Notes under the pieces: generated by a model
What the model saw: only the letters and a program-made list of their open reading frames with translations
Told to the model about the DNA's origin: nothing
Database searches by the model: none
Origin: Mustelus asterias
Lineage: Eukaryota
Length of the DNA stretch: 64,000 nucleotides
Assembly (NCBI RefSeq): GCF_964213995.1
Contig: NC_135808.1
Location: 558,001 to 622,000 of the forward strand
Direction: 5' to 3'
Shown: positions 4,440 to 54,779 of the stretch, piece by piece
Layout of the letters: each line of letters begins with the position of its first letter
Numbering within the stretch: position 1 is the stretch's first letter
Translations under genes and position numbers: made by a program

Positions 4440-5150
4440 AACGCTTACCTGAAGATCAGAGGCTGAATGCCCGTGACTGCTGAAGTGCTCCCCCACAGGA
4501 AGAGAACAGTCTTGCCTGGTGATTGTCGAGCGATGTTCATTCATCTGTTGTCGTAGCGTCGGCATGGTTTCCCCAAGACGCTACGACAACGGATGAATGA
4601 ACACCGCTCGACAATCACCAGGCAAGACTGTTCTCTTCCTGTGGGGAAGCACTTCAGCAGTCACGGGCATTCAGCCTCTGATCTTCAGGTAAGTGTTCTC
4701 CAAGGCGGCCTTCTCGACACACGACAGTGCAGAGTCGCTGAGCAGGAACTGATAGCCAAGTTCCGCACACTTGAGGACGGCCTAAACCGGGATGTTGGAT
4801 TTATGTCACATTATCAGTAACCCCCACAGCTTGCCTCCTGGACTTGCAGGCTGTCCTGTCTGGAGACAATACACATCCCTTTAACCTGTGCTTAATGCTC
4901 CCTCCACCCACATTGTCTGTATCTTTAAGATCTGACTGGTTGTAGGGATTCACATTCTAATCAGTATTCTGTAACTTGTTTTTTGTGTCTCTGTGTCCTG
5001 TTTGAGAGCAGATTTCCACTCCATCTGACGAAGGAGCAGCGCTCCGAAAGCTAATGGTATTTGCTACCAAATAAACCTGTTGGACTTTAACCTGGTGTTG
5101 TTAAAACTCTTACTGTGTTCACCCTAGTCCAACGCCAGCATCTCCACATC
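4440..5150 (+). mobile_element. 5'-truncated Penelope-like element (C-terminal GIY-YIG region plus 3' pseudo-LTR) with an inverted 5' duplication
   Basis: ORF 4593-4820 MNEHRSTITRQDCSLPVGKHFSSHGHS...EQELIAKFRT..GLNRD is typical of the PLE GIY-YIG C-terminus; ~121-bp inverted arms 4440-4560 and 4577-4697; hammerhead in the 3' part. Confidence 0.8.
5021..5057 (+). ncRNA. Minimal type I hammerhead ribozyme in the PLE 3' repeat
   Basis: Stem I CCAT/ATGG; core CTGACGA (5025-5031); stem II GGAGC/GCTCC; GAAA (5046-5049); palindromic minimal stem III AGCT; predicted CUA cleavage triplet (5051-5053). Confidence 0.75.
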
Positions 5151-6750
5151 ACTTCTATGAGATAGCCAGTTACTTATCCAATCGGCCAAATTTCCCTCTA
5201 TCCCACACCTCCTTACTTTCTTCATGAGCCTACCATGAGGAACCTCATCAAACGCCTTACTAAAATCCATGTATATGACATCAACTGCTCTACCTTCATC
5301 TACACACTTAGTTACTTCCTCAAAGAATTCAATCAAATTTGTGAGGCAAGACTTACCCTTCACAAATCTGTGCTGACTATCACGGATTAAGCTGCATTTT
5401 TCCAAATGGTCATGAATCCTATCCCTCAGGACCTTTTCCATTAACTTACCGACCACCGAAGTAAGATTAACCAGCCTATAATTACCAGGGTCATTCCTAT
5501 TTCCTTTCTTGAACAGAGGAACAACATTCACCACTCTCCAGTCCTCTGGCACTATCCCCATGGACAGTGAGGACCCAAAGATCAAAGCCAAAGGCTCTGC
5601 AATCTCATCCCTTGCCTCCCAAAGAATCCTAGGATATATCCCATCTGGCCCAGGGGATTTATCGACCCTCAGGTTTTTCAAAATTGCTAATACACCTTCC
5701 CTCAGGACATCTACCTCCTCCAGCCTATCAGCCTGTATCCCATTCTCATCCTCAAAAACATGGTCCCTCTCCTTGGTGAACACTGAAGAAAAGTATTCAT
5801 TCATCGCCTCTCCTATCTCTTTTGACTCCATGCACAAGTTCCCACTACTATCCTTGACCGGACCTAACCTCACCCTGGTCATTCTTTTATTTCTCACATA
5901 AGAGTAAAAAGCCTTGGGGTTTTCCTTGATCCGACCCTCCAAGGACTTCTCATGCCCCTCCTAGTTCTCCTAAGCCTTTTTTCTAGCTCATTCCTTGCTA
6001 CCTTGTAACCCTCAAGTGACCCAACTGAACCTTGTTTTCTCATCCTTACATACGCTTCCTTTTTCCTCTTGACAAGACATTCAACCTCTTTGGTGAACCA
6101 TGGTTCCCTCACTCGGCCATTTCCTCCCTGCCTGACAGGGACATACCTATCAAGGACACTCAGCATTTGTTCCTTGAACAAGCTCCACTTTTCATTTGTG
6201 CCTTTTCCTGACAGTTTCTGTTCCCATCTTATGCTCCCTAATTCTTGCCTAATCACACCATAATTACCCCTCCCCCAATTATAAACCTTGCCCTGCCGTA
6301 AGGCCCTATCCCTCTCCATTGCAATAACAAAAGACACCGAATTGTGGTCACTATCTCCAAAGTGCTCTCCCACAACCAAATCTAACACTTGGCCCGGCTC
6401 ATTTCCCAGTACCAAGTCCAATGTGGCCCCACCTCTTGTCGGCCTATCCACATATTGTGTCTGGAAACCCTCCTGCACACACTGTACAAAAACTGCCCCA
6501 TCCGAACTATTTGACCTATAAAGGTTCTAATCAATGTTTGGAAAGTTAAAGTTCCCCATGACAACTACCCTGTGACCTCCACACCTATCCATAATCTGCT
6601 TAGCAATTTCTTCCTCCACATCTCTATTACTATTTGGGGGCCTATAGAAAACCCCCAACAACATGACCGCTCCTTTCCTATTTCTAACTTCAGCCCATGT
6701 TACCTCAGTCGGCAGATCCCCCTCGAACTGCCTTTCAGCAGCTGTTAAAC
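5151..6750 (-). mobile_element. CR1-like LINE ORF2 fragment (APE endonuclease to mid-RT), frameshifted
   Basis: PTRGGATLDLVLGNE..GDSDHNSV (APE); DKSPGPDGIYPRIL, GNYRLVNLTSVVGKLMEK, DVIYMDFSKAFD (RT). Confidence 0.95.
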
Positions 6751-7427: not shown

Positions 7428-8066
7428 ATGGATGAGGCTGTTGAATTTGAGCAGGTGGGTTTGTCCATGACCACGACGGCACCGCTGCCGCCGCCCGTTA
7501 CGGACGGTGGCGCCCCCGCCCTTGTCGTTGCACCTCTCTCTGCCTCCCCCGAGCCGGGTCCCCCAGCGCCACCGCCCCCGCAGCTCTCCGCCTCTCTTCC
7601 CACGGTCGTTGCCGCCGCCAAGAAGAAAAGCACGTACCGCTCGGTGGCCGAGCACATCCTGGAGGCGGTGGCCGCCACCAAGGAGCGCCAGGCGACCCCC
7701 ACTGCTGCCAGGCGAAAGACCATCTCGGCCGCCGACTACGAGGTGGACGGCGCCCGGCCTCGCCATTCTTCGGCCGGTAAAAAGTCGTCGGCCCGAGGCG
7801 GTAAACAGGAGGAGGCCGCCAGAGGGGAGACTCAGAAGAAAGCCGCCGTCGCCAACAGGAAACGTTCTCCTAAGAAGTCGTCGTCGGCTGCCGGAGGATC
7901 GCACCGGAGTTTCAAGGTGCCGAAAGCCCTCAAAAAGTCGTCCAAACTGAGAAAAGCCCCCAAGCGGCCGGTGGAGAGGAAGCGAGTGGCGGGAAAGAGG
8001 AGAAAGAGGCACCGGCAGCAGAGAAAACATCTTAAAAAATACCCCACGATAAAAGGGCTCTTTTAA
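7428..8066 (+). CDS. Divergent histone H1-like protein 'H1a' (212 aa): acidic/Pro-rich N-terminus, truncated winged-helix, basic tail
   Basis: ATG 7428 follows a GC box (7307-7318) and TACATAA (~7378); SVAEHILEAVAATKER...ISAADYEV matches H1 helices 1-2; K/R-rich tail; GC-rich intronless ORF ending within a histone stem-loop. Confidence 0.7.
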   Translation: MDEAVEFEQVGLSMTTTAPLPPPVTDGGAPALVVAPLSASPEPGPPAPPPPQLSASLPTVVAAAKKKSTYRSVAEHILEAVAATKERQATPTAARRKTISAADYEVDGARPRHSSAGKKSSARGGKQEEAARGETQKKAAVANRKRSPKKSSSAAGGSHRSFKVPKALKKSSKLRKAPKRPVERKRVAGKRRKRHRQQRKHLKKYPTIKGLF

Positions 8067-8071
8067 GAACC
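8056..8071 (+). promoter_or_regulatory. Degenerate histone 3' stem-loop overlapping the H1a stop codon
   Basis: GGCTCT-TTTA-AGAACC (one C.A mismatch); stop TAA at 8064-8066; AATAAA at 8237-8242. Confidence 0.8.
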
Positions 8072-8890: not shown

Positions 8891-8947
8891 AGGATGCGGG
8901 AGTTTTTCAATCTGTTTTCCGCCCGAGTCGGACGAAGTGGAGTTGGA

Positions 8948-9328
8948 ATGCCTGAGCTTGCGGCTAAGGGCGGCGCGTCCCGCAAGGCGTCCAAACAGTC
9001 GCTGACCAAGGTCACCAAGAAGCCGCCCAAGAAGCGGAGGAAAGCCCGCAAGCAGAGCTACTCCACTTACGTGTACCGGGTGCTGACCCAGGTCCACCCG
9101 TCCACCCGCATCTCGTCCAAGGCCATGAACGTCATGAATTCTTTCGTGGTCGACATTTTCGAGCGCATCGCGTCTGAGGCATCGCACCTCATCCACTACA
9201 ACAAGCGGCGTACTATCTCGGCACGGGAGATCCAGAGCGCAGTCCGCCTCATGCTACCGGGCGAGTTAGCCAAACACGCCATCTCCGAGGGCACCAAGGC
9301 GGTCACCAAGTACACCAACTCCGCCTAA
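8948..9328 (+). CDS. H2B: Divergent histone H2B 'H2B-1' (126 aa)
   Basis: MPELAAK...[24 protein letters not shown]...[24 protein letters not shown]; stem-loop GGCTCT-TTTA-AGAGCC at 9387-9402. Confidence 0.95.
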
Positions 9329-18549: not shown

Positions 18550-19168
<619 letters not shown>

Positions 19169-22651: not shown

Positions 22652-23068
<417 letters not shown>

Positions 23069-24324: not shown

Positions 24325-24705
24325 TTATTTGCAGCTGGTGTACTTGGTGACCGCCTTGGTGCCCTCGGAGACGGCGTGTTTCGCCAACTCGCCGGGCAGC
24401 AAAAGGCGGACGGTGGTCTGGATCTCCCGAGAGGAGATGGTCTGCCGCTTGCTGTAGCGGATGAGGCGGGAGGCCTCGCAGGCGATCCGATCGAAGATGT
24501 CGTTGACGAACGAGTTGATGACGCTCATGGCAGAGGAAGAGATACCGGTGTCCGGGTGGACCTGCTTCAGCACCTTGTAGATGTAGATGCTGTAGCTCTC
24601 CTTGCGGCTCTTCTTACGCTTCTTCTCGCCCTTGGCGCGCCTCTTGGTGGCTGCTTTCTTCAGCCCCTTCTTGGGAGCCATACCCTTTGCCGCCGCTTCA
24701 GGCAT
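24325..24705 (-). CDS. H2B: Divergent histone H2B 'H2B-2' (126 aa, two Cys)
   Basis: [13 protein letters not shown]...[24 protein letters not shown]...RIACEASR...KYTSCK; octamer ATTTGCAT(-) 24777-24784; stem-loop 24262-24277(-). Confidence 0.95.
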
Positions 24706-31245: not shown

Positions 31246-34059
31246 TAAAGAACTCCACTTAATAACAAAAGATTTGAAGGAAAAAGCCTTTCATCGCACC
31301 CTCAGAGTTAAGAAGGGTGGACAATTACAATGAGGCTGTCCTGGTATCACATGCATTCTGTAAACAAATAAAAATATAATCTTGAGGAAGTCATGATGTA
31401 GTAAGTAAAAAGAAAGAACTTTAATGTACATCACCCCCTTCACATCAACAGAGCTTCGGAATGGATGAAAGTTATTTTTGTGCTTTTTTGGGGTGAGCCA
31501 CACCCACCAAGTTGCACACAGGAAGATTCCACAGATTCACATCATCTGTTTACTGATGATTAATTAGAGATATCTTTGATCGGGGCACCAGGACAAGTCC
31601 CTTGTTTTTGTTTTTCAAATGGAATTACTTGTATTCAGACAAACACCGCAGTTTAATGTTTCATCGACTGTAAATTGCCACTATTGCAGCATTCCCTCAG
31701 TACTGCACAGATATCTTGCTCTACATTGTATGCCTTTGCCATGGTATTGAATTATGTTGCTCCGTCATGCTACTACCAACGAACCAAGTTGGCAAAAATG
31801 TGAAGGGGGATTCCTCTCGACAACGGTAATAAGAAGGCAGGAACTGAAAGAGTAGCAGGAAATTATATAATGGGGTTTAAACTAAGCTCAGATATGAACG
31901 TGACATAGGATTCAGAGTCAACAAACTGCCAGGCTGGGGTGTGTTTGTGGGGCAAATGAGCGATTTGTTCTGGGAGCCAAACAGAATTGGTTTTGAAGTA
32001 AAAGTTGGAGAAAGCTTATGATGGAGGTGACAGAATCGTAGAATCCCGACAGCGCAGAAGGGGGTCATTCATTCCATCGAGCCTGCACCAACAACAATCC
32101 CACTCAGATCCTATCCCCTCAACCCCACCATTTACCCTGCCATTACAGAGACTTAGTTAAGGGAAGGACAGGATTGGCAGCTTAACATTCCAGGATACAG
32201 ATGTTTCAGGCGGGATGGGGGGATGTAAAAAGGGTGGGGGAGTTGCACTACTGATTAAGGAGAACAGCTGTACTGCGAGAGGACACCTCGGAGGGATCAT
32301 ACGGTGAGGCAATATGGGTAGAGCTCAAGAATAGGAAGTGTGTAGTCACAATGTGACTACACGAAGGTGAGTGGGAAAGCGAATTGCGTGGAGGACGCGG
32401 ATATTCTGCAGAGAGATTTGGATAGGTTGAGCGAGTGGGCGAGGATCTGGCAGATGGAATATAACGTTAGCAAATGTGAGGTTATCCACTTTGGAAGAAA
32501 TAATAGTAAATTGGAATATTATTTAAATGGAGAAAAATTACATCGTGCGACTGTGCAGAGGGACCTGGGGGTCCTTGTGCACGAATCGCAAAAACTCAGT
32601 CTGCAGGTGCAGCAGGTGATCAAGAAGGCGAATGGAATGTTGGCCTTTATCGCGAGGGGGATAGAATATAAAAGCAGGGAGGTCTTGCTGCAACTGTACA
32701 AGGCACTGGTGAGGCCGCAACTGGAGTACTGTGTGCAGTTTTGGTCCCCTTATTTGCGAAAGGATATATTGGCCTTGGAGGGAGTGCAGAGAAGGTTCAC
32801 CAGGTTGATACCGGAGATGAGGGGTGTAGCTTATGAGGAGAGATTAAACAGATTGGGTCTGTACTCGTTGGAGTTTAGAAGGATGAGGGGTGATCTTATA
32901 GAGACATATAAGATAATGAAGGGGCTGGATAGGGTAGAGGTGGAGAGATTCTTTCCACTTAGAAGGGAAACCAGAACTAGTGGGCACAGCCTCAAAATAA
33001 GGGGGGGCCGGTTCAGAACAGAGTTGAGGGGGAACTTCTTCTCTCAGAGGGTAGTGAATCTCTGTAATTCTCTGCCCATTGAAGTGGTGGAGGCTTCCTC
33101 GTTGAATATGTTTAAATCACGGGTAGATAGTTTTCTGATCAATAGGGAATTAGGGGTTATGGGGAGCAGGCGGGTAAGTGGAACTGATTCGCTTCAGATC
33201 AGCCATGATCTTATTGAATGGCGGGGCAGGCTCGAAGGGCCAGATGGCCTACTCCTGCTCCTATTTCTTATGTTCTTAATGTTGGGGGTTTATTATAGGC
33301 CACCCAACTGCCAGTGGGAGATAGAGGAACAGGTGTGTAGGCAGATTTTGGCAAAATGTAAAAGTAACAGGGTTGTTGTGTTGGGAGATTTTAACTTCCC
33401 CTATATTGACTGGGACTCACTTAGTGCTCGGGGCATGGATGGGGCAGAGTTTGTAAGGAGCATCCAGGAAAGCTTCTTGAAACAGTTTGTAGATAGTCCA
33501 ACTAGGGAAGGGGACTATCTGGACCTGGTATTGGGGAATGAGCCCGGCCAGGTGGTCGATGTTTCAGTAGGGGAACAGTTCGGAAACAGTGGCCACAATT
33601 CAGTAAGCTTTAAAGTACTAATGGATAAAGATAAGTGTAGTTCTCAAGTTAAGGTGCTAAACTGGGGGAAGGCTAATTACAACAATATTAGGCAGGAACT
33701 GAAGAATGGAGATTGGGGGCAGATAGAATCATAGAATCATAGAAACCCTACAGTGCAGAAAAAGGCCATTTGGCCCATCAAGTCAGCACCAACCACAATC
33801 CCACCCAAGCCCTACCCCCATATCCCTACATATTTCACCCGCTAATCTACGCATCTCAGGACACTAAGGGGCAATTTTAGCATGGCCAATCAACCTAACC
33901 CACACATCTTTGGAAACCGGAGCACCCGGAGGAAACCCACGCAGACATGAGGAGAATGTGCAAACTCCACACAGACAGTGACCCAAGCCGGGAATCGAAC
34001 CCAGGTCCCTGGAGCTGTGAAGCAGCAGTGCTAACCACTGTGCTACCGTGCCCTTCTGC

Positions 34060-41985: not shown

Positions 41986-42315
<330 letters not shown>

Positions 42316-45038
42316 AAACTTAAGGGAAAATATTTCACTGGAAAGGCTCTTTTAAGAGCCACTAATCCTTTTTACGAAAGACATGTACCTTTAATAATCC
42401 TTTATCGTGTTGGTTGGAGGACAGCTTCAATCAAACTAACCAGTTTACTTTACAGTTGCGCGTCATTTAGAAAAATTAAAATATAGCGTTTTGCACATGT
42501 GAATTGGGCTGGACAGAATTGTGCTCAACCACAATCTAACCTTACGGCCCAGCATATATCCCACTCTACCATTACCAAGCCAGTGGATTATGCCCTGGTT
42601 CAGTGCAGGAGCAGCACCCAGGCGCAGCTTTAAAAAAACGAGGTGTCAACCTGGTGAAGCTTCAACACAGGACTACTTGCATGCCAAGCAACACAGGCAG
42701 CAAAGTTTAAACGTAGCTAAGCAATTCCACAACTAAAGGATTAGATCTGAGCTCTGCAGTCCTGCCATATCCAGCCATGAATGAGGGTGGAAGACTAAGT
42801 TCACTTTGGGGGGAGGTGCCAAAAATAGCCCCATCCTCAATGATGCTGGAGCCCAATACATCAGTGCCAAACGTAAGGCTGAAGCATTCACAGCAATGTT
42901 CAGCCAGAGGTGCCGAGTGGATGATCCATCTCGGCTTCCTCCGGAGGTCCCGAGCATCTCAATGTCAGCATTCAGCCAATTCAGTTCACTCCATGTGGTA
43001 TCAAGAAATGGCTGAAAGCACTGGATACCGCAGAGGCAATGAACCCTGACAATATTCCAGCAATAGTACTGAAGATGTGTTCCAGAACTTGCCACGCCCC
43101 TAGACAAGCTCTTCCAGTACAACACTGACACCTACCTTTCCGTGCGAGGCCAAGCTGCCTGTGCAGCCTGACAATTCGCTCTGAATTCAGCTGCAAGGAG
43201 CCGAGATGCCCCAAGGTTCAACTGCAGCAGGCAAGGAACATGCAGAGAGTTGAAAGAATGGTATAGAACAATGAAGACAAGAAAGAGACCACGGGTGAAA
43301 GGATTTCCAATATCGGATACGGGCAACTCCTAAAGAGGAACAGAGAAATAGCCGAATATCTTGGGGAAAACAAACCTAGTATCATTGGCAAGTAATCTCG
43401 ATCCAGTTCTAGAATCAAGTCACCAATTGGTTATTTTGTGCCCCATCCAAGTCGGATGTTGTAATTTTTTGGGGGGTTAGTGCCAGTTAACTATGGCTGG
43501 GTTAAATTGATCCTTGAACCATCTCAGCTGATTTTTAAAAATTCTTTACTGGATGTGGGCATTGCTGGCTGGGCCCAGCATTTATTGCCCAGCCCTATCC
43601 CAGACCACCCTCCATTTCAGAGGGAATGTGAGAGTCAACCACATTGTTGTGGCTCTGGATTTACATGTAGGCCAGACTGGGTAAGGACGACAGATTTCCT
43701 TTCCTAAAGGACATTAGTGAACCAGATGGGTTTTTCTGACAATCGACAATGGTTTCATGGTTTAATTCCAGATTTTTATTGAATTCCAATTTCACCATCT
43801 GCCATGATAAAATAAGTAATTGCAGCACAGAAGGTGGCTATTCGGCCCATCAGGTCCATGCCGGCTCCAGTGATTGAGCGATCCAGTCAATCAGTCATGG
43901 TCTCCATTTCCATTGAGCAGTGAGTTCCAAGTCATTCCTATTCTCCACATTCTTCCTCATATTGCCTCTCCCTCTAGCCCAAATCTTTAGCCAAAAATCT
44001 CACAGATGTATTCTCAAATACCATCAGCTGATTAAAACCAGATTTTCTCGTCTAGCTGACCTAAACCTGCCGTAATCTTGTCCATCTCTATCAAATTTCC
44101 CTTTCCATCTCCTTCACTCTGGGGAAAACAACTCCAGATTCTCCAACCCTAATCTTGTAAGTAAAATCCCCTCATCCCTGGAACCGTTCTGGTGAATCTC
44201 CTTCTCCTGGAGCCTCACATCCTCCCTCCAGGCCCTGGCGCAATACTCTAGTTGGCACCTAACCGGTGTCTTTATGAAGATTCAGCATAACTTCTCTCTT
44301 TTTGTCCTCAAAGAAGCCCAATATCCTATCCGCTCTGCCATTAGGTCTGTTCAGAACTGTTGGCAATGAGTCTACATCGTCTCTGCTGATCCTGCATCGC
44401 CTCATTTCTCTCTGTTCAATTCCACCTGTCTACCCAGCCTAAGAGCCTCTCCGAGTTCCTGTTATACACGATTAGTCTCATGGTCAGTGTTTATCTCTCC
44501 TCCGAGTTTGGCAACTTTTACTTTACAATTCATTCAGGAAAAAAAAGAAACCAGTTAGTGGGGAAAATCCCCGCTTTGTTTTGCGCGTTAAGTGGCCACG
44601 GTAGGCAAAGCCCTCCCGTCCATTGACGTCAATCCCCATGTCACAACCCCTCTCTGTAACTCAGCTCACAGACTCAACCGGGACCTTCCAGGTTCCACAG
44701 GACCCTCGGGAAGGCCGAAACCTGGTCGACTTCCTCCTGCGGCCTCCCATCGACTTGCCACCGGTTCGTTCCCGCCAAAAAGAAAATAGCGGGAAGTCGC
44801 GCAATTTGTGGGGGGGGGGGGGAGGGAGAACAACTGAGCATGCGCGGCGGGGTCTATCCGGGGCGGAGTCAGCCTCGTGCCGCTGCCGCCCGGGGCAGAC
44901 GGGGGGGGGGGGCGAGGGGGGCTGCCCCCAGGTCCGCACCGGGGCTTTAAATAGCGCCGAGGCAGGTGGGCCGTCTTCACATTGCAGCTGCGGCTGCCGG
45001 AGGGAGCGGAGGAAGTTTGATTGATTATTAACCCGCAC

Positions 45039-45749
45039 ATGGCGGACGTTGAATCCGTGGACATGGATTTCCCTGCTCCGGCGGTCTCTCCGCCGCCTCC
45101 CCCACCCCGCCCACTACCACCTCCAGACGTGAATGAGGCGGTGGACTTCGCGGTGGCGGTGAAGAAAAAACGGCGGCCGTATCGCCACAAAAAGTTCGGT
45201 TGCACGGTGGCTGAACACATAATGAAGGCGGTGGCAGCCACCAAGGAGCGACGGGGCCTCTCGGTGGCCGCTATGAAGAAGATGTTGTCGGCCAGCGGTT
45301 GTAAACAGCGCCGCAGCAAGTCGCGGGTCACCCAGCCCGTTCGCAGCTTCCTCAAACGGGATTCGCTGGTCAAAGCGCCTGGCAGTCTCGCTGCCTCCAC
45401 CAGGCTGGGCGACGCCACAGGAAAACTGGGCATCGAAGCAAAGAAAGGCGAAGGGTCGACCGTGGTCTCTGTCTTTGAAACCAGGCGGAACCGCAGGAGG
45501 AAGGCGGCCCCCCACCCAAAGAGGGCGGTCAAAAGGCAGCGCAAGCCAGCCAGGAGAAAGTCGCTGAAAAGTAAAAGGTGGGCGGGACGGAGCAACAAAA
45601 GGCCGAACTTCCGAAAGGCCTCCCCGATCAGGAGGTCGGCCAGTGTCAATCCGGTCTGCCGGCCGCAGGAAGAGTCCAATACCCCTAACCCCGTGGCGCG
45701 AAGTGGAGAATCGACCTGTGGAGAAAACTGCTCTTCTCAGAGCCACTAA
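45039..45749 (+). CDS. Divergent histone H1-like protein 'H1b' (236 aa): Pro-rich N-terminus, divergent winged-helix, Arg-rich tail, 5 Cys
   Basis: TVAEHIMKAVAATKERRGLSVAAMKKMLSASG...SRVTQPVRSFLKRDSLVK matches H1 globular helices 1-3; GC box 44860-44871; TTTAAATA 44946-44953. Confidence 0.75.
   Translation: MADVESVDMDFPAPAVSPPPPPPRPLPPPDVNEAVDFAVAVKKKRRPYRHKKFGCTVAEHIMKAVAATKERRGLSVAAMKKMLSASGCKQRRSKSRVTQPVRSFLKRDSLVKAPGSLAASTRLGDATGKLGIEAKKGEGSTVVSVFETRRNRRRKAAPHPKRAVKRQRKPARRKSLKSKRWAGRSNKRPNFRKASPIRRSASVNPVCRPQEESNTPNPVARSGESTCGENCSSQSH
45729..45744 (+). promoter_or_regulatory. Degenerate histone stem-loop inside the H1b CDS
   Basis: TGCTCT-TCTC-AGAGCC followed by ACTAA (stop TAA 45747-45749); AATAAA at 45828-45833 and 45912-45917. 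Confidence 0.8.
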
Positions 45750-46906
45750 ATATCAGTAAAAAGGGGCCAGATCGATTCAGACTAAAAAGATATAGTTAAT
45801 GTAACGTTGAAAGAAAAGTTTTGATTTAATAAAGTGAAAGTTAAGACGTAACTAGTATTATTTATTTGGCTGTTTTGGGTTTTTATATAGTTAACTGGAT
45901 GTAAGTGATTTAATAAAGGATTAAAGACGTACACGTTTTTTATGCAGTAAATATACAAAACCAAATGTCCGACCCTGGAAAATGGGTTAAAATGTTTGAT
46001 AAAGAGCATTAAAATATACAAATCTAGGTTATACAGACCCTCAACAGACGTAAGATGCTGAAAATATTAGGATTCAATAAATTGAGAGAAGTCTTGTAGA
46101 CTGCAAATTACTGACAGTAAATTGGGCCACCAGAAGGGCGGGAACTGGTCCCAGACACTGAGTAACCTGGTGTCAGAATCATGTGTTCAAGGGAAAAAGT
46201 ATTGCTTTGTGGGGTGTTGTATGTAGGACAAGACCCCATTACAAAGCAAATTACTGCAAAATACTTAGCTGAAAAAAGCGGGTCACTGAAAAGGCCAGAT
46301 GACACTTGCTGAACGTTGCATAAAGGGAGAATTAAGATACAAGTATTTTTATTTAAGTCCTTGCACGGGTTGGCGGAAACCCGGTACAAAGCAAATTACC
46401 GCAGCTGCTGGAAACAATGGGTAACAGCGGGAGGGGACCAGGGCGTTACCAAATATCTTTGGATGCACCCGACTAAGGAAGGAGGGGTGGAGTGAGAGGG
46501 GTTTTAAGGTTTGAACTTGCAAACTGACCGGAAGCTTTCATTTTGCTAAGGCAGGGAGGAACAGGGCGCCCAGTGGGCTGCGGCTCCGAGTGGGAGGACT
46601 CGTCCGCTTTGAGTGTTAGGGAGCATGCGCGGGGTGGGTTGGGGAACACGTGCGCTGAATGGGCTCTGGAGCATCCTCCAAGTGGGTTGTGGAGCATGCG
46701 CCGAATAGGTGGGCGAACACGCGCCGGCTCCCAGTGGGAGGACTCGCGTCTATCACGTCGGCCTTGAGAGTTGAAAAAGCGCCGCCGCCGCTGCCCGTGC
46801 TGTCGTTCTGCTCCCGGCGGCAAAGAGCGCGGGAGGGAGGGACGAGGAGACGGCTGCAGTCTGGGAGGGCGGCGAAGGGAAGGTGCTAAAGGCGCCACCG
46901 CCGCAA

Positions 46907-47568
46907 ATGGCTTCGGGCGATCTGCTCGAAGGCCCCTCCCGAGGCAGAAAGCCGAGACGGCGGAGGGGCCCGCCGCCCTCCAGGGTGCGGCAAGCGGCGG
47001 GAGCGCCCACCGTGTCGGGCCACATCGTGGAGGCGGTGGCCTCTTCCCGGGGGAGCCGCAGCCAATCGCTGGCCGGCGTCAAGAAGGCGCTGTCGGCCGC
47101 CGGCTACGACGTGCCGCGGATCAACTCGCGGGTGAACCAAGCGGTGCGGAGCCTGGTCAGCGGCGGCTCGCTGCTCCAGACCGCCGGCACCGGGGCCTCC
47201 GGCTCCTTAAGGATCAACCGGCAGCATCTGGAGGGACAGAGCCGCGCCTCCGCCGCCCCCAAAGCCCAGGGGGGAGAGCGGCCGCTGGGCCCAGAGCCAA
47301 GGTGAAGAGGAGCCGGGCCCGGCTGAAGAAGAAACCGGGAGGAGGCCGGAGGAAAGGAGCCGCTGTCGGCGGCGGGCGGAGGAAAAGAGCCAAAGCCACC
47401 GGCGTCCGGAGGTTGGGCGGGCGGCTCCGGAAAGCGCGCGAGGAGCCGGCGCCTGAAGGGGATCCGGCCGCCGGGCAGGAAGGGGAAGAAGAGGCGGCAG
47501 CAACTGAGAAAGAAACCGAGGAAACAACCGGGCGGCAGGAAAGCAAAACGGTGAAGGAGGAAAAATAA
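46907..47568 (+). CDS. Histone H1 variant 'H1c' with a 1-nt frameshift (assembly error or pseudogene); 220 aa if restored
   Basis: Globular domain PTVSGHIVEAVASSRGSRSQSLAGVKKALSAAGYDV...QTAGTGASGSLRIN in one frame, which stops at 47305. Basic then acidic tail in the -1 frame to 47568. Adding one G to the G6 run at 47269-47274 fuses them. Perfect stem-loop 47591-47606 and HDE AGAAAGAG ~47621. Confidence 0.75.
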
Positions 47569-48146: not shown

Positions 48147-48554
48147 ATGCCGACTGCCGCTGTCTCCACCAGTGCCACCACCGTGGGCTCCAAGGGCTCC
48201 CTGTCCAAAAAAGGCTCCAAGAAGACAGCAATGAAGATGTCCAGGAAGGGGGACAAGAAGCACCGGCGCAGCAGGAAAGAGAGTTACAGCATCTACATCT
48301 ACAAGGTGCTGAAGCAGGTCCACCCGGACACCGGCATCTCCTCCAAGGCCATGAGTGTCATCAACTCGTTCGTTAGCGACATCTTCGAGCGCATCGCCGG
48401 CGAGGCTTCCCGCCTGGTCCACTACACCCGGCGCCAGACCATCTCCTCCCGGGAGATCCAGAGCGCTGTCCGCCTCCTGCTGCCGGGAGAGCTGGCCAAG
48501 CACGCTGTCTCCGAGGGCACTAAGGCGGTCACCAAGTACACCAGCTCAAAGTAG
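48147..48554 (+). CDS. H2B: Histone H2B 'H2B-3' with extended Ser/Thr-rich N-tail (135 aa)
   Basis: [18 protein letters not shown]...[24 protein letters not shown]...KYTSSK; CCAAT 48022, ATTAGCAT 48052-48059, TTTATATAA ~48067; stem-loop GGCTCT-TCTA-AGAGCC at 48593-48608. Confidence 0.95.
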
Positions 48555-51357: not shown

Positions 51358-54049
51358 CTGGGGTGAACGGGAGACAAGGAGTTACTCTGATCAATGAAGA
51401 AAATGTGGCTGCTGTTTAATATGCTAAATAATCACAAACAATCATAGAATCTCTACACCGCCAACAACCCAACCCAGATCCTACCCCCGTAATCCCACAT
51501 GTTTACCTTGCTAATCTCCCTGACACTAAAGGATAATTTAGCATGGCCAATCCACCTAACCTGCACATCTTTGGACACTAAGGGGCAATTTATCATGGCC
51601 AATCCACCCAACCTGCACATCTTCGGGCTGTGGGAGGGAACCGGAGCACCCGGAGGAAACCCACGCAGACACGGGGAGAACATGCAGGCTTCACGTGGTC
51701 AACAAGGCTGGAATTGAATCTGGGTCCCTGACGCTATGAGGCAGCAGTGTTACCTGCTCTGCCTCTGTGCTGCCAATTATAAACTATGAAAAGAGCATGG
51801 AGAGTGAAACTGTACCAACATGATCTGAAAAAGTAAACTAGAGAGTGCTACAGAGATAAATCCGCCACATTATTCATTGATATTAATATGATCAATGTAA
51901 GAGATTTTCCCTCAAAGTTTCACTGCATTGTGCCTCTCTGCCTCGGAAATCTCCACCGTAATTTATCTGGTAACTCTTAATTCATTCTTTCACAAGCCTT
52001 GATAGACTCCCTCAGCCACAACTGCCTGACCCTCCCAACAAAATAAACCAGCTGCGTGTGGGAGGGGGTGAAAGTGACAAGCTGTCCATCAGACTCTCAC
52101 TATCGCACACTCTCCTTGATGGGAAAACGTAGAACGATTGAAACTGGGAGCAGGAGGAGGCCATTCAGCCCTTTGATCCTGCTCCGCCATTCAATATGAT
52201 CATGGCTGATCCTCTATCTCACCGACATACTCTTCCCCCAGAACCCTTTTGATGTAAGGGGGCTAAATTAGGCTATACTGACTTAAGAGTGAATGACCAT
52301 AAAATCATAGAATCTACAGGGCAGAAGGAGGCCATTTGGCCCATCGAGCTTGGACCGACAACAATCCACCCAGGGCCCATCCCCTTAACCCCACATATTT
52401 ACCCCGCTAATCCTCACGGGGGAATTTATCATGGCCAATCAACCTAACCCGCATATCTTTGGACTGTGGGAGGAAACCGGAGCACCCAGAGGAAACCCAG
52501 GCAGACATTTCTCATTTAAACATATATTTTGAATTTATAAAATGGATGCAGTTTGCTTTTAGAATACATTTTGTGAAACTTCAGCCAACAGCAAGATGCA
52601 GCAGGGTTTGATGGATGAAGCAGTAGCTAGAGCCTGTAGGACAATGGTTTTACTTAATGGGGCCACATTATCAGCAGTGATTGGGAACAAAATGGCTGCC
52701 AATGCCAGTTTGAGGAAAACTATACAGCTCAAAGCTGATAACACAGGTGCATGGCAGACATAAGGATTTTCTCAGGGTCGGACAAGTGGGTTTGAGTCTG
52801 TGGGAATCATTTCACTGTCCAACGTCCTGTGTTGCTGGAAAACCGAGGGAGGTAAAATCCGTAATTAAGGACAAATAAGATCCCATGAGGTCAGGGTGTA
52901 AATTGTTATTGGCTGGAGTTAGTGAGAGTAATGAATATTGACTGACTTGTATTAACGTTTACTGGATTGTGCCCACTGGAAATGTGGGAAATTTGAATTT
53001 GAAAATGTATAATTGCTCTCGCGGAGGCATTATTTTTCAGAGTGACATGGGGATGCCTGCATTCTCTACCTGGAGTGTTGGGCCTCTTTATATCATTCTC
53101 CCATTTGATCATTTGGTCAATAATGTCACATCTTAGCATCAATACACTGAGTTTCATGAGTCTCTGTATTTAGCTTAAGTTTAGCAATGCACAGCCTCAA
53201 AAGAAAATCTACGTCAACACCCTTGAGACCTTTAGAGTCCAGAAACCTATTTTCTTCTTAAATACATTCAGTGGCTTGGCCTCCACAACCTCCTGTGGTA
53301 GAGAATTCCACAGATTCACCACCCTCTGAGTGAAGACGTTTCTCCTCATCTCAGTCCTAAATAGCTTAACCCCAAATCCTGAGATCGTGCCCCTTGTTCC
53401 AGACTTGAGGAAGGTGAGAAAAAAAGTGAGAACAAACTTTGGCAGAGCTGAGGGTGGGGGGGAGGTGAGGAGAAATGTTTTTGGTACAGTCAGTTGCTAT
53501 GATGTGGGATGCGCTATCCTGAAAAGGTTCGATTTAATGGCAACTTTCCAAATGGAATTGGATAAATACTTGACATGGGCAGGAGGGGAGGGGAGGAGAG
53601 AGGAGGGGCTCTGGGGGCTGATGAGGCAGAAAATCCCAGCACTACGGTGAAAGGACGGGAGGGGGACCATCAGTTGATGGCGCTCTCAGTGAGCCAGCAC
53701 CGACGCAACAGGCAGAATGGCCTTCTTCTGTGCCCTAAGATCCCAAGAACCCAAGCAATCAGTATCCAGAAGAGAACGAGAGGCAAGTAGATAAAAGCAA
53801 TCGCCCTCGGGTAAGTAAGTGGATCATCCCGGGTGCATCTAAAAGGGGAAATCTGGGAGGGAGGGGGATAGGAGATTGTGAGAGGGGGCAGGGAAGAAGG
53901 ATGGGGATGGCGAGTGCACAGCATAAACTCCCCAGCATCGAGCAATTGGACCAAATGACCTGCTGTAAAACCCCACGTAACTCCCTGCAGGCAAAAACCG
54001 AACAAAGGTAAAGATAAAATGACCCAAAAAGAGAGAGCGAGGAACTCAC

Positions 54050-54592
54050 CCGCGATTCGAATTGAAGGGTGCGGATCAGCTCCGAATCATCCTTGGGTGG
54101 GGCTCGGTTTTGGGTGCTCTGGGTGCTGGCCATCGCAGCTGGGCTGGAGGGCAGCCTTAAGAAGTAATGGATACAGGCGTAACAGTCCCCATCCAGAAGG
54201 ACCACTATAATCCAAACCCAGGCGTGGTAGAAGACCTTGAGGAAGGCCAGGAATTTCCAGGAGCCAGAGGGGTGCTGGCGCCGGTCTGCACCCACTGGGC
54301 CGCCGCCAATCTTTGCCCCTTCTTCCCCCGGCGGGCACCTGCAGCACAGCAGACACTCCCGGTGCAGGAAGACACTCAACAGGGTCAGCACCAGAGCTGG
54401 CACCAGCAGGAAGGTCACGCCGTAGATCACGTTGTAGCCAGCCAGCCAGGGGCACTGGAAACCAATCTCCGCCATCTCTTGCAAGCCCCAGAAGATGGTG
54501 GCCACCACCAGGGAGCCCAGCACCTTGAAGACGGGTTTCCCCAATAGGGAGAGCTTGTCCTGCTCTGCAAGCTGCAGTATATGGAAGGGCAT
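54050..54592 (-). CDS. CALHM/FAM26-like channel, first recognisable coding exon (TM1-TM3); start may be the upstream in-frame ATG at 54694 or an unseen exon
   Basis: FQCP..GYNVIYGVTFLLVPALVL and WIIVVLLDGDCYAC are CALHM signatures; ends ESR|GTGAGT donor, phase 0, at the position of the conserved CALHM intron. Confidence 0.82.
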
Positions 54593-54779
54593 AGTGTGTG
54601 TGTGTGTGTGGGTGGCTTCAATCCCTCCCTCTTCTGAGGCTGAGGGCTCCCAACCCTTCCATTTGAATGACAATTGCGAAGTGATTGACAGCATCCCTGT
54701 TTGCTTTGCAATGCGTTCCTGCTCCTCCTCGAGCAAGCCCTGACTCTGCAAAGCAGACCTTGCAGATCTTGATTTAACC

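Follow-up and report, generated by a model that had tools for sequence, protein, structure and literature searches.

A linker histone gene of the shark Mustelus asterias, H1b, raises the question of whether a histone 3′-end processing signal lying inside a coding region is still used, or persists mainly as codons. The H1b reading frame runs through a histone stem-loop and stops at the predicted U7 cleavage site, and the first-pass annotation proposed that the choice between U7 cleavage and polyadenylation could act as an expression switch. We analysed the gene within the 64,000-nucleotide stretch of DNA that contains it (the window), where the gene itself comprises the following features.

44946–44953, forward strand: TATA-like box TTTAAATA upstream of H1b, recognised by sequence and of putative function
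45039–45749, forward strand: H1b ORF of 236 aa, encoding an Arg/Lys-rich divergent linker histone conserved across cartilaginous fishes
45162–45410, forward strand: basic motif KKKRRPYRHKKF and globular H15 domain (residues 42–124), with divergent helix 3 and wing

The predicted protein has an H15 winged-helix domain above the Pfam cut-off (PF00538, 25 bits against 22.4, profile positions 4–64 of 74), which would place it among the H1/H5 linker histones. It has the H15 domain and basic tail in common with that family and with the shark and ray predictions named 'histone H1-like' or 'H1.11R-like' by NCBI, and differs from H1/H5 proteins in its Arg-rich tail (19% R over residues 125–215), in a helix 3 and wing that are divergent in galeomorph sharks, and in an acidic C-terminal extension; the ORF translation ends in SGESTCGENCSSQSH followed by the stop. 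There are 14 relatives, all in cartilaginous fishes (six sharks, seven rays and skates, and one chimaera), with 45–62 of the 83 H15 domain residues identical to those of H1b, and the KKKRRPYRHKKFGCTVAE motif is common to H1b and most of them. In a domain tree H1b lies closest to a protein of Scyliorhinus torazame (support 96/85), but the tree of 33 globular domains does not resolve all of the relatives as one supported clade; past S. torazame, the case for orthology is made by best hits together with the shared motif. A role in germ cells is plausible given the arginine-rich tail; we found no functional study of the 'histone H1-like'/'H1.11R-like' family of sharks and rays in the literature searched.

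H1b is a single intronless ORF within a histone cluster, and a poly(A)-ended contig from a related species (organism C, below) has no joints. The window's cluster comprises three H2B genes, H2A, H3, H4 and three H1-like genes, amid retroelement remains that include PF00078 reverse transcriptase and PF14529 endonuclease fragments (5124–5882, reverse strand, and 32454–33734, forward strand). The core histone genes (8894–9328, 24325–24705, 48147–48554, 18779–19168, 22652–23062 and 42004–42315) all have intact stem-loops. The three H2B genes differ strongly from one another in their N-terminal tails, and the core histones of the window appear to be variants rather than canonical copies. In the third H1-like gene, H1c (46907–47568, forward strand), the reading frame shifts past the globular domain; translation in the first frame would end at a stop at 47305, and a tail matching S. 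canicula P0023 runs in another frame to a TAA at 47566–47568, 22 nt before a perfect stem-loop. This frameshift is either a real lesion or an assembly error. An ORF with a calcium homeostasis modulator domain (PF14798, 57.4 bits; 53759–54694, reverse strand) is probably a single CALHM exon located beside the cluster.

The 3′ end of H1b is arranged as follows.

45702–45728, forward strand: nine codons (SGESTCGEN) leading up to the stem, in common with Chiloscyllium and S. torazame
45729–45744, forward strand: histone stem-loop homologue TGCTCT-TCTC-AGAGCC, covering the last six H1b codons
45747–45749, forward strand: H1b stop codon TAA, at +3 to +5 after the stem, within an ACTAA flank
45760–45767, forward strand: predicted purine-rich HDE-like site AAAGGGGC

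The coordinates in the first-pass annotation for the stem-loop, the TAA and the AATAAA motifs at 45828 and 45912 are all right, and the ORF does translate through the stem-loop to a stop whose last base lies 5 nt after the stem. This hairpin is genuinely homologous to histone stem-loops, since 14 of its 16 letters match the cluster consensus, all nine sites in the window with two or fewer mismatches sit at the 3′ ends of histone genes, and none is present in 20 mononucleotide shuffles of the window. Its stem begins 21 nt ahead of the last base of the stop codon; in the seven ordinary neighbours of the cluster the stem lies 22–58 nt past the stop, and in the available text of a recent survey (bioRxiv 2026.10.14.759114) histone stem-loops usually lie 25–60 nt past the stop. 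H1b therefore lacks the positional hallmark of a replication-dependent stem-loop/U7 histone gene. The SGESTCGEN codons are probably former 3′ UTR captured into the ORF, judging from their spacing. The position of the stop is less special than it appears because the ACTAA flank also follows an ordinary H4 stem-loop (42345–42360), being carried by two of the nine flanks in the cluster, whose five bases past the stem differ among the genes. A stop at +5 requires this variant to fall in frame, an uncommon though hardly remote circumstance.

The hairpin combines worn and preserved elements. It has five pairs, the basal G–C pair being broken (G1 to T), and a C at loop position 2 that is also present in one ordinary H2B hairpin of the cluster. 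Its RF00032 score of 23.0 bits is the lowest of the nine (H1a 26.9, the seven ordinary hairpins 30.2–41.9), although four ordinary neighbours (30.2–33.8) are also below the gathering score of 34; a six-pair stem with a four-base loop at the RF00032 cut-off is not found in H1b. The second-pair G and loop U1/U3 are kept, so H1b does have the second-pair G and the U at loop position 3 that mark a stem-loop histone gene, and in the available text of PMC10388802 this G makes the only base-specific contacts of SLBP, and the minimal SLBP site includes one 3′ flanking A. The stem energy is −5.3 kcal/mol, compared with −9.3 to −9.4 kcal/mol for the seven ordinary hairpins, and falls outside the −7 to −10 kcal/mol given for metazoan stem-loops in the accessible part of the same survey, the methods of which may differ. 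The survey also gives 14/16 as the average metazoan match, using sequence downstream of stops with linker histones excluded. In four sequence contexts the pairing probability of the H1b stem is 0.01, 0.18, 0.01 and 0.88, and that of the seven ordinary hairpins is at least 0.87 in 26 of 28 tests. The HDE-like site forms an 8-bp duplex with nt 3–18 of human U7, used as a stand-in for shark U7, at −8.2 kcal/mol, which is mid-range among the nine sites (−3.8 to −13.3) and not better than its own shuffles (0.30). Compared with RF00032 as a whole, H1b is alike in its 14 core letters, second-pair G, loop U1/U3, A-rich 5′ flank, A at +1 and purine-rich downstream site, and unlike in its sub-threshold score, broken basal pair and location inside an ORF.

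An assembly error behind the overlap appears unlikely, because all 105 sampled words are present in two sequencing runs (possibly from the source sample) and a contig from another species (organism B) covers 45541–45774 with no listed change at a T or in the stop, and with one unplaced gap. None of the runs listed for the stretch is recorded as RNA, which has no bearing on expression.

Three elements downstream of the stop bear on how the transcript ends.

45828–45833, forward strand: proximal AATAAA, read through in the single poly(A)-ended contig
45912–45931, forward strand: distal AATAAA (45912–45917) and, in the related species, the poly(A) addition site after 45931
45920, forward strand: ATTAAA

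A lack of transcripts would have told against the first-pass account, and organism C provides a poly(A)-ended contig at the 45912 signal. One 1059-nt contig in run X7 extends over 44905–45931 and continues into 23 non-templated A; this is one contig from one run, of a library kind not on record and of a species other than M. asterias, and it differs from the window by 87 other letters and 25 gap letters. The differences listed for organism C leave out 73 substitution rows and 17 indel rows, so that the listing does not cover the letters of its hairpin, its stop or its frame. The A-tail starts 14 nt after the distal AATAAA, and between 45920 and 46000 the window contains no run of more than 4 A. 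A DNA run of organism C (X8) has the same listed substitutions and is continuous to 46150, with none of its seven records ending at 45931. We read the X7 contig as a polyadenylated mRNA passing through both the hairpin and the proximal AATAAA, and because of where its non-templated A tail begins, it is very likely that transcription of H1b proceeds across the hairpin and that the RNA is polyadenylated. A tail 10–30 nt after an AATAAA is thus observed in organism C only, in one contig; a poly(A)-selected library is unable to reveal a U7 product. The presence of AATAAA was itself rejected as evidence of polyadenylation, as the motif occurs within 300 nt of five of the eight other stem-loops.

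At the first H1b ATG (45039) both runs of organism C show T instead of A, and the second in-frame ATG (45063) is absent from its listed differences. The poly(A)-ended contig begins at 44905, ~40 nt ahead of the TATA-like box. This hints that transcription starts further upstream in this organism, with the proviso that contigs cannot fix a start. The listed indels in the coding part of organism C sum to +6 (the listing leaves out 8 gap letters), and a second sample of the window's own species has no gaps over 45109–45358 and 45411–45689.

Comparison with relatives indicates that the overlap is shared among sharks. We scored the last six residues of the 14 relatives, all predicted proteins, by their best back-translation match to the 16-nt core. 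In the register of the window (which scores 14), Chiloscyllium plagiosum (GSSQSL), C. punctatum and Pristiophorus japonicus (GSFQGR) each score 15, and Heterodontus francisci (GSSLSH) equals the window at 14. Lower scores are those of Mobula (13), S. torazame (10) and the remaining eight relatives (5–9). None of 143 other H1-like proteins is above 11/16 at this register. The C-terminal hairpin layout is therefore predicted in four of the six shark relatives, and spans galeomorph and squalomorph sharks, which separated more than 200 million years ago. A second observation that would have undermined the first-pass account, orthologues stopping before the acidic extension, describes the Heptranchias relative but not these four, which end across the hairpin. 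S. torazame, the nearest named relative, keeps the ESTCGEN peptide and ends two residues short, sharing 1/6 residues of the hairpin peptide and 9/15 of the preceding residues with the window. The hairpin peptide is not recognisably kept in six of the seven rays and skates.

A private mutation or error, or a dead gene, is a barely credible explanation of the overlap and is largely refuted. The PF00538 match of only 25 bits with a divergent wing, the frameshifted neighbour H1c, and the altered first ATG of organism C would fit it, but it is countered by the C-terminal register in four other sharks and the 14 full or near-full relatives, as well as by the ungapped segments in the second sample, the +6 sum of the listed organism C indels, and the poly(A)-ended contig.

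Two further ideas are leads at most. One is that TGG at 45704–45706 is an old stop matching that of Heptranchias, and the other that rays and skates read a dead hairpin in another frame (best case 12/16 in Pristis and 13/16 in Mobula); neither is significant in frame-aware alignments (p 0.06–0.99). Unrelated predicted H1-like proteins (P0020, P0026, P0079, P0080 and P0088) contain the stem-loop-encoded peptides ALFRA, ALLRA and GSFQSH, located 16–35 residues before the protein ends, and so read-through of histone stem-loops recurs in annotations.

The departures from the stem-loop consensus that are forced by the peptides differ by lineage. The window departs at position 1, Heterodontus at position 11, Chiloscyllium at the +1 flank (or 16), and Pristiophorus at position 13 together with the +1 flank (or 16). 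Synonymous freedom permits a full six-pair stem in the latter three sharks, and for this reason erosion of the hairpin in lineages beyond this window is suggested only. Over the tail (residues 125–215) the same sharks are identical to H1b at just 15–21 of 91 positions, with best-case hairpins of 14–15/16. In Heterodontus 4/6 residues of the hairpin peptide are kept compared with 16/91 in the tail, and the hairpin and the 15 residues preceding it are equally well kept in Chiloscyllium (4/6 and 10/15).

The history may not be a single one. Capture of the hairpin more than once, separately in galeomorphs and in Pristiophorus rather than once in a shark ancestor, is a tentative possibility that concerns history only and is compatible with the hairpin being a relic. 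The Heptranchias stop before the extension fits it, as does the Pristiophorus extension EELVDH, which is closer to DLVDQ of the rays than to the galeomorph ESTC peptide; over residues 216–230 Pristiophorus has 0/15 residues identical to the window (alignment A1). However, the nine-codon spacing (S...N/T) before the hairpin is common to the window, Chiloscyllium and Pristiophorus, and the frame-aware alignments for Heptranchias, rays and Pristiophorus are not significant (p 0.06–0.99).

The first-pass annotation also proposed that a paralogue in the window, H1a, reached the same architecture of a stem-loop within the coding sequence.

8004–8071, forward strand: H1a read-through, 20 extra codons past the stop of its relatives, with a damaged stem-loop at 8056–8071
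8064–8066, forward strand: H1a TAA inside the damaged stem-loop

The H1a hairpin, at 26.9 bits, has a pairing probability of 0.00 in all four contexts. A direct homologue search with H1a gave no match at E values up to 0.001, and its family was reached through the Heptranchias protein P0140. Thirteen of 15 relatives terminate with a short basic motif, two carry unrelated extensions, and none ends in the peptide that closes with GLF at the stop. Both Scyliorhinus relatives terminate after ...AGKRR; at that point the window instead carries AAG, followed by 20 further codons. The AAG is 49 nt ahead of the stem, which is an ordinary length for a UTR. Because none of the relatives shares the read-through, we interpret the H1a overlap as a recent stop loss. 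The H1a family (H1a at 7428–8066, forward strand; P0140 and P0159–P0172) is conserved across sharks and rays, and its 15 members are without a precomputed Pfam domain; a rescan of three members gave one match of 14.8 bits, below the cut-off, and two without a match. H1a looks like an H1 derivative that has kept helix 1–2 motifs and lost the rest of the winged helix.

Simulations address how readily such an overlap arises. When the stop was removed or the frame shifted in the seven ordinary cluster genes (21 trials), reaching the stem-loop was the commonest outcome (11/21); two trials stopped at a TAA in the loop, as in H1a, and none at +5. The shared architecture is thus not supported as a sign of function, and H1a is no independent confirmation of H1b, being a recent stop loss and an outcome that the null model produces.

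A switch of the kind first proposed also encounters a difficulty at the stop codon. In the available text of PMC10388802 the U7-cleaved end is trimmed by 3′hExo, usually by 2 nt, and both there and in that of PMC12775136 cytoplasmic trimming takes the processed histone mRNA back to 3 nt past the stem. A trimmed U7 product of H1b would retain ACU and lose its UAA, and the resulting stop-less mRNA would presumably be sent to non-stop decay; any switch would thus be an off-switch, and the idea of a translatable mRNA without a 3′ UTR does not survive the trimming rule as that text gives it. We consider it very improbable that both 3′ ends are used and that the U7 product is a stable UTR-less mRNA translated at a different rate. 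The stop does end exactly at the canonical cleavage position, and dual-mode histone genes exist (available text of PMC5100578, PMC9526256 and PMC8857922), but trimming to 3 nt past the stem removes the AA of UAA, ribosomes would be expected to unwind the stem and displace SLBP, and the +5 position comes from a common flank variant that also follows H4. With no evidence of U7 use found, and the weakest of the nine hairpins by Rfam score, the switch as originally described is not supported.

An off-switch is a different matter, and unlikely rather than negligible. SLBP/U7 cutting and trimming would remove the UAA in dividing cells, leaving the mRNA destroyed or untranslatable, and the poly(A) form would be translated where SLBP/U7 are low, so that a hairpin within the reading frame would serve to exclude a specialised H1 from chromatin during S phase. 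Such a role agrees with the preserved SLBP contact and loop U's, the mid-range HDE duplex, a stop register common to four of six sharks from both galeomorphs and squalomorphs (with none of the 143 other H1-like proteins above 11/16 at it), the better-kept hairpin peptide of Heterodontus (4/6 against 16/91), the observed poly(A) branch, and the trimming rule itself. It is hard to reconcile with the weakest hairpin of the nine by Rfam score, mostly unpaired in three of four contexts, or with its shortening in S. torazame and its not being kept in Heptranchias or, recognisably, in six of seven rays and skates; no U7 product has been observed, and the preceding 15 residues are kept just as well in Chiloscyllium. 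The fuller proposal, that an old shark H1 variant keeps a working in-codon stem-loop, with U7 as a kill switch in dividing cells and polyadenylation licensing expression elsewhere, is slightly more doubtful still.

A simpler explanation, and the one we think probable, is that H1b is a poly(A) H1 variant whose ORF captured a hairpin that is now decaying. The gene would descend from a replication-dependent histone gene, as a divergent arginine-rich H1 variant of cartilaginous fishes. A stop loss or tail frameshift in shark evolution would have extended the ORF by ~15 codons, across the formerly short 3′ UTR and then the stem-loop, as far as the next stop in frame, supplied by chance from the ACTAA flank. 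This capture would be tolerable because the H1b mRNA would be made by ordinary cleavage and polyadenylation ~180 nt downstream, and the hairpin would now mainly code for the last six residues, eroding separately in each lineage. We infer the capture event, the loss of SLBP/U7 use, expression of the protein and any germ-cell role. A leftover is more likely than a switch because organism C gives a contig with an ordinary poly(A) tail beyond the hairpin, its DNA continuing past that point, and because the hairpin has the marks of wear: the Rfam score is the lowest, stem energy weak and pairing poor, and the departures are lineage-specific. The stem also lies outside the usual spacing after the stop, trimming would destroy the stop, and 11/21 simulated stop losses or frameshifts arrive at a stem-loop. 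Against a relic are the intact second-pair SLBP-contact G, loop U1/U3 and plausible HDE, the 14/16 match and the best-case 14–15/16 matches in Chiloscyllium, Heterodontus and Pristiophorus, and the failure of all 21 simulations to stop at +5.

Read as a captured and decaying hairpin, the H1b element preserves in nature the departure of a histone gene from the stem-loop pathway, in which the old 3′ signal is fossilised in protein and is readable from C-terminal peptides across sharks. It also offers a test of how SLBP and U7 behave on a translated hairpin. If the hairpin is still cut, U7 processing would destroy rather than mature the mRNA, inverting the usual role of the stem-loop; if not, it is an evolutionary curiosity and a warning that a stop at a U7 site can be a by-product of flank sequence.

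The literature searched, which did not extend to subscription journals, contains no report of a histone stem-loop inside an ORF, or of this shark gene. The closest known systems are clustered histone genes that also yield polyadenylated mRNAs, such as human HIST1H1C and HIST2H2AA3 (Lyons et al. 2016, PMC5100578, available text). These are like H1b in being intronless and clustered, with a poly(A) signal lying 3′ to the stem-loop, the hairpin being inside the poly(A) mRNA; however, as far as that text describes them, their stem-loops are canonical, lie in the 3′ UTR and are used in S phase, whereas that of H1b is damaged and forms the last six codons, and its use is hypothetical. A second group is formed by variant histone genes with dual signals, including H2AX, whose mRNA has two 3′ ends (PMC9526256, available text), and germline H2B variants that carry both 3′ signals (PMC8857922, available text). 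H1b likewise has both kinds of 3′ signal, but in the dual-signal genes, by these accounts, the hairpin is in the UTR and both mRNA forms keep the stop and a 3′ UTR, whereas the stem-loop form of H1b would lose its stop. On its sequence features H1b works like a poly(A) histone variant, and departs from a canonical stem-loop gene in both the integrity and the position of its stem.
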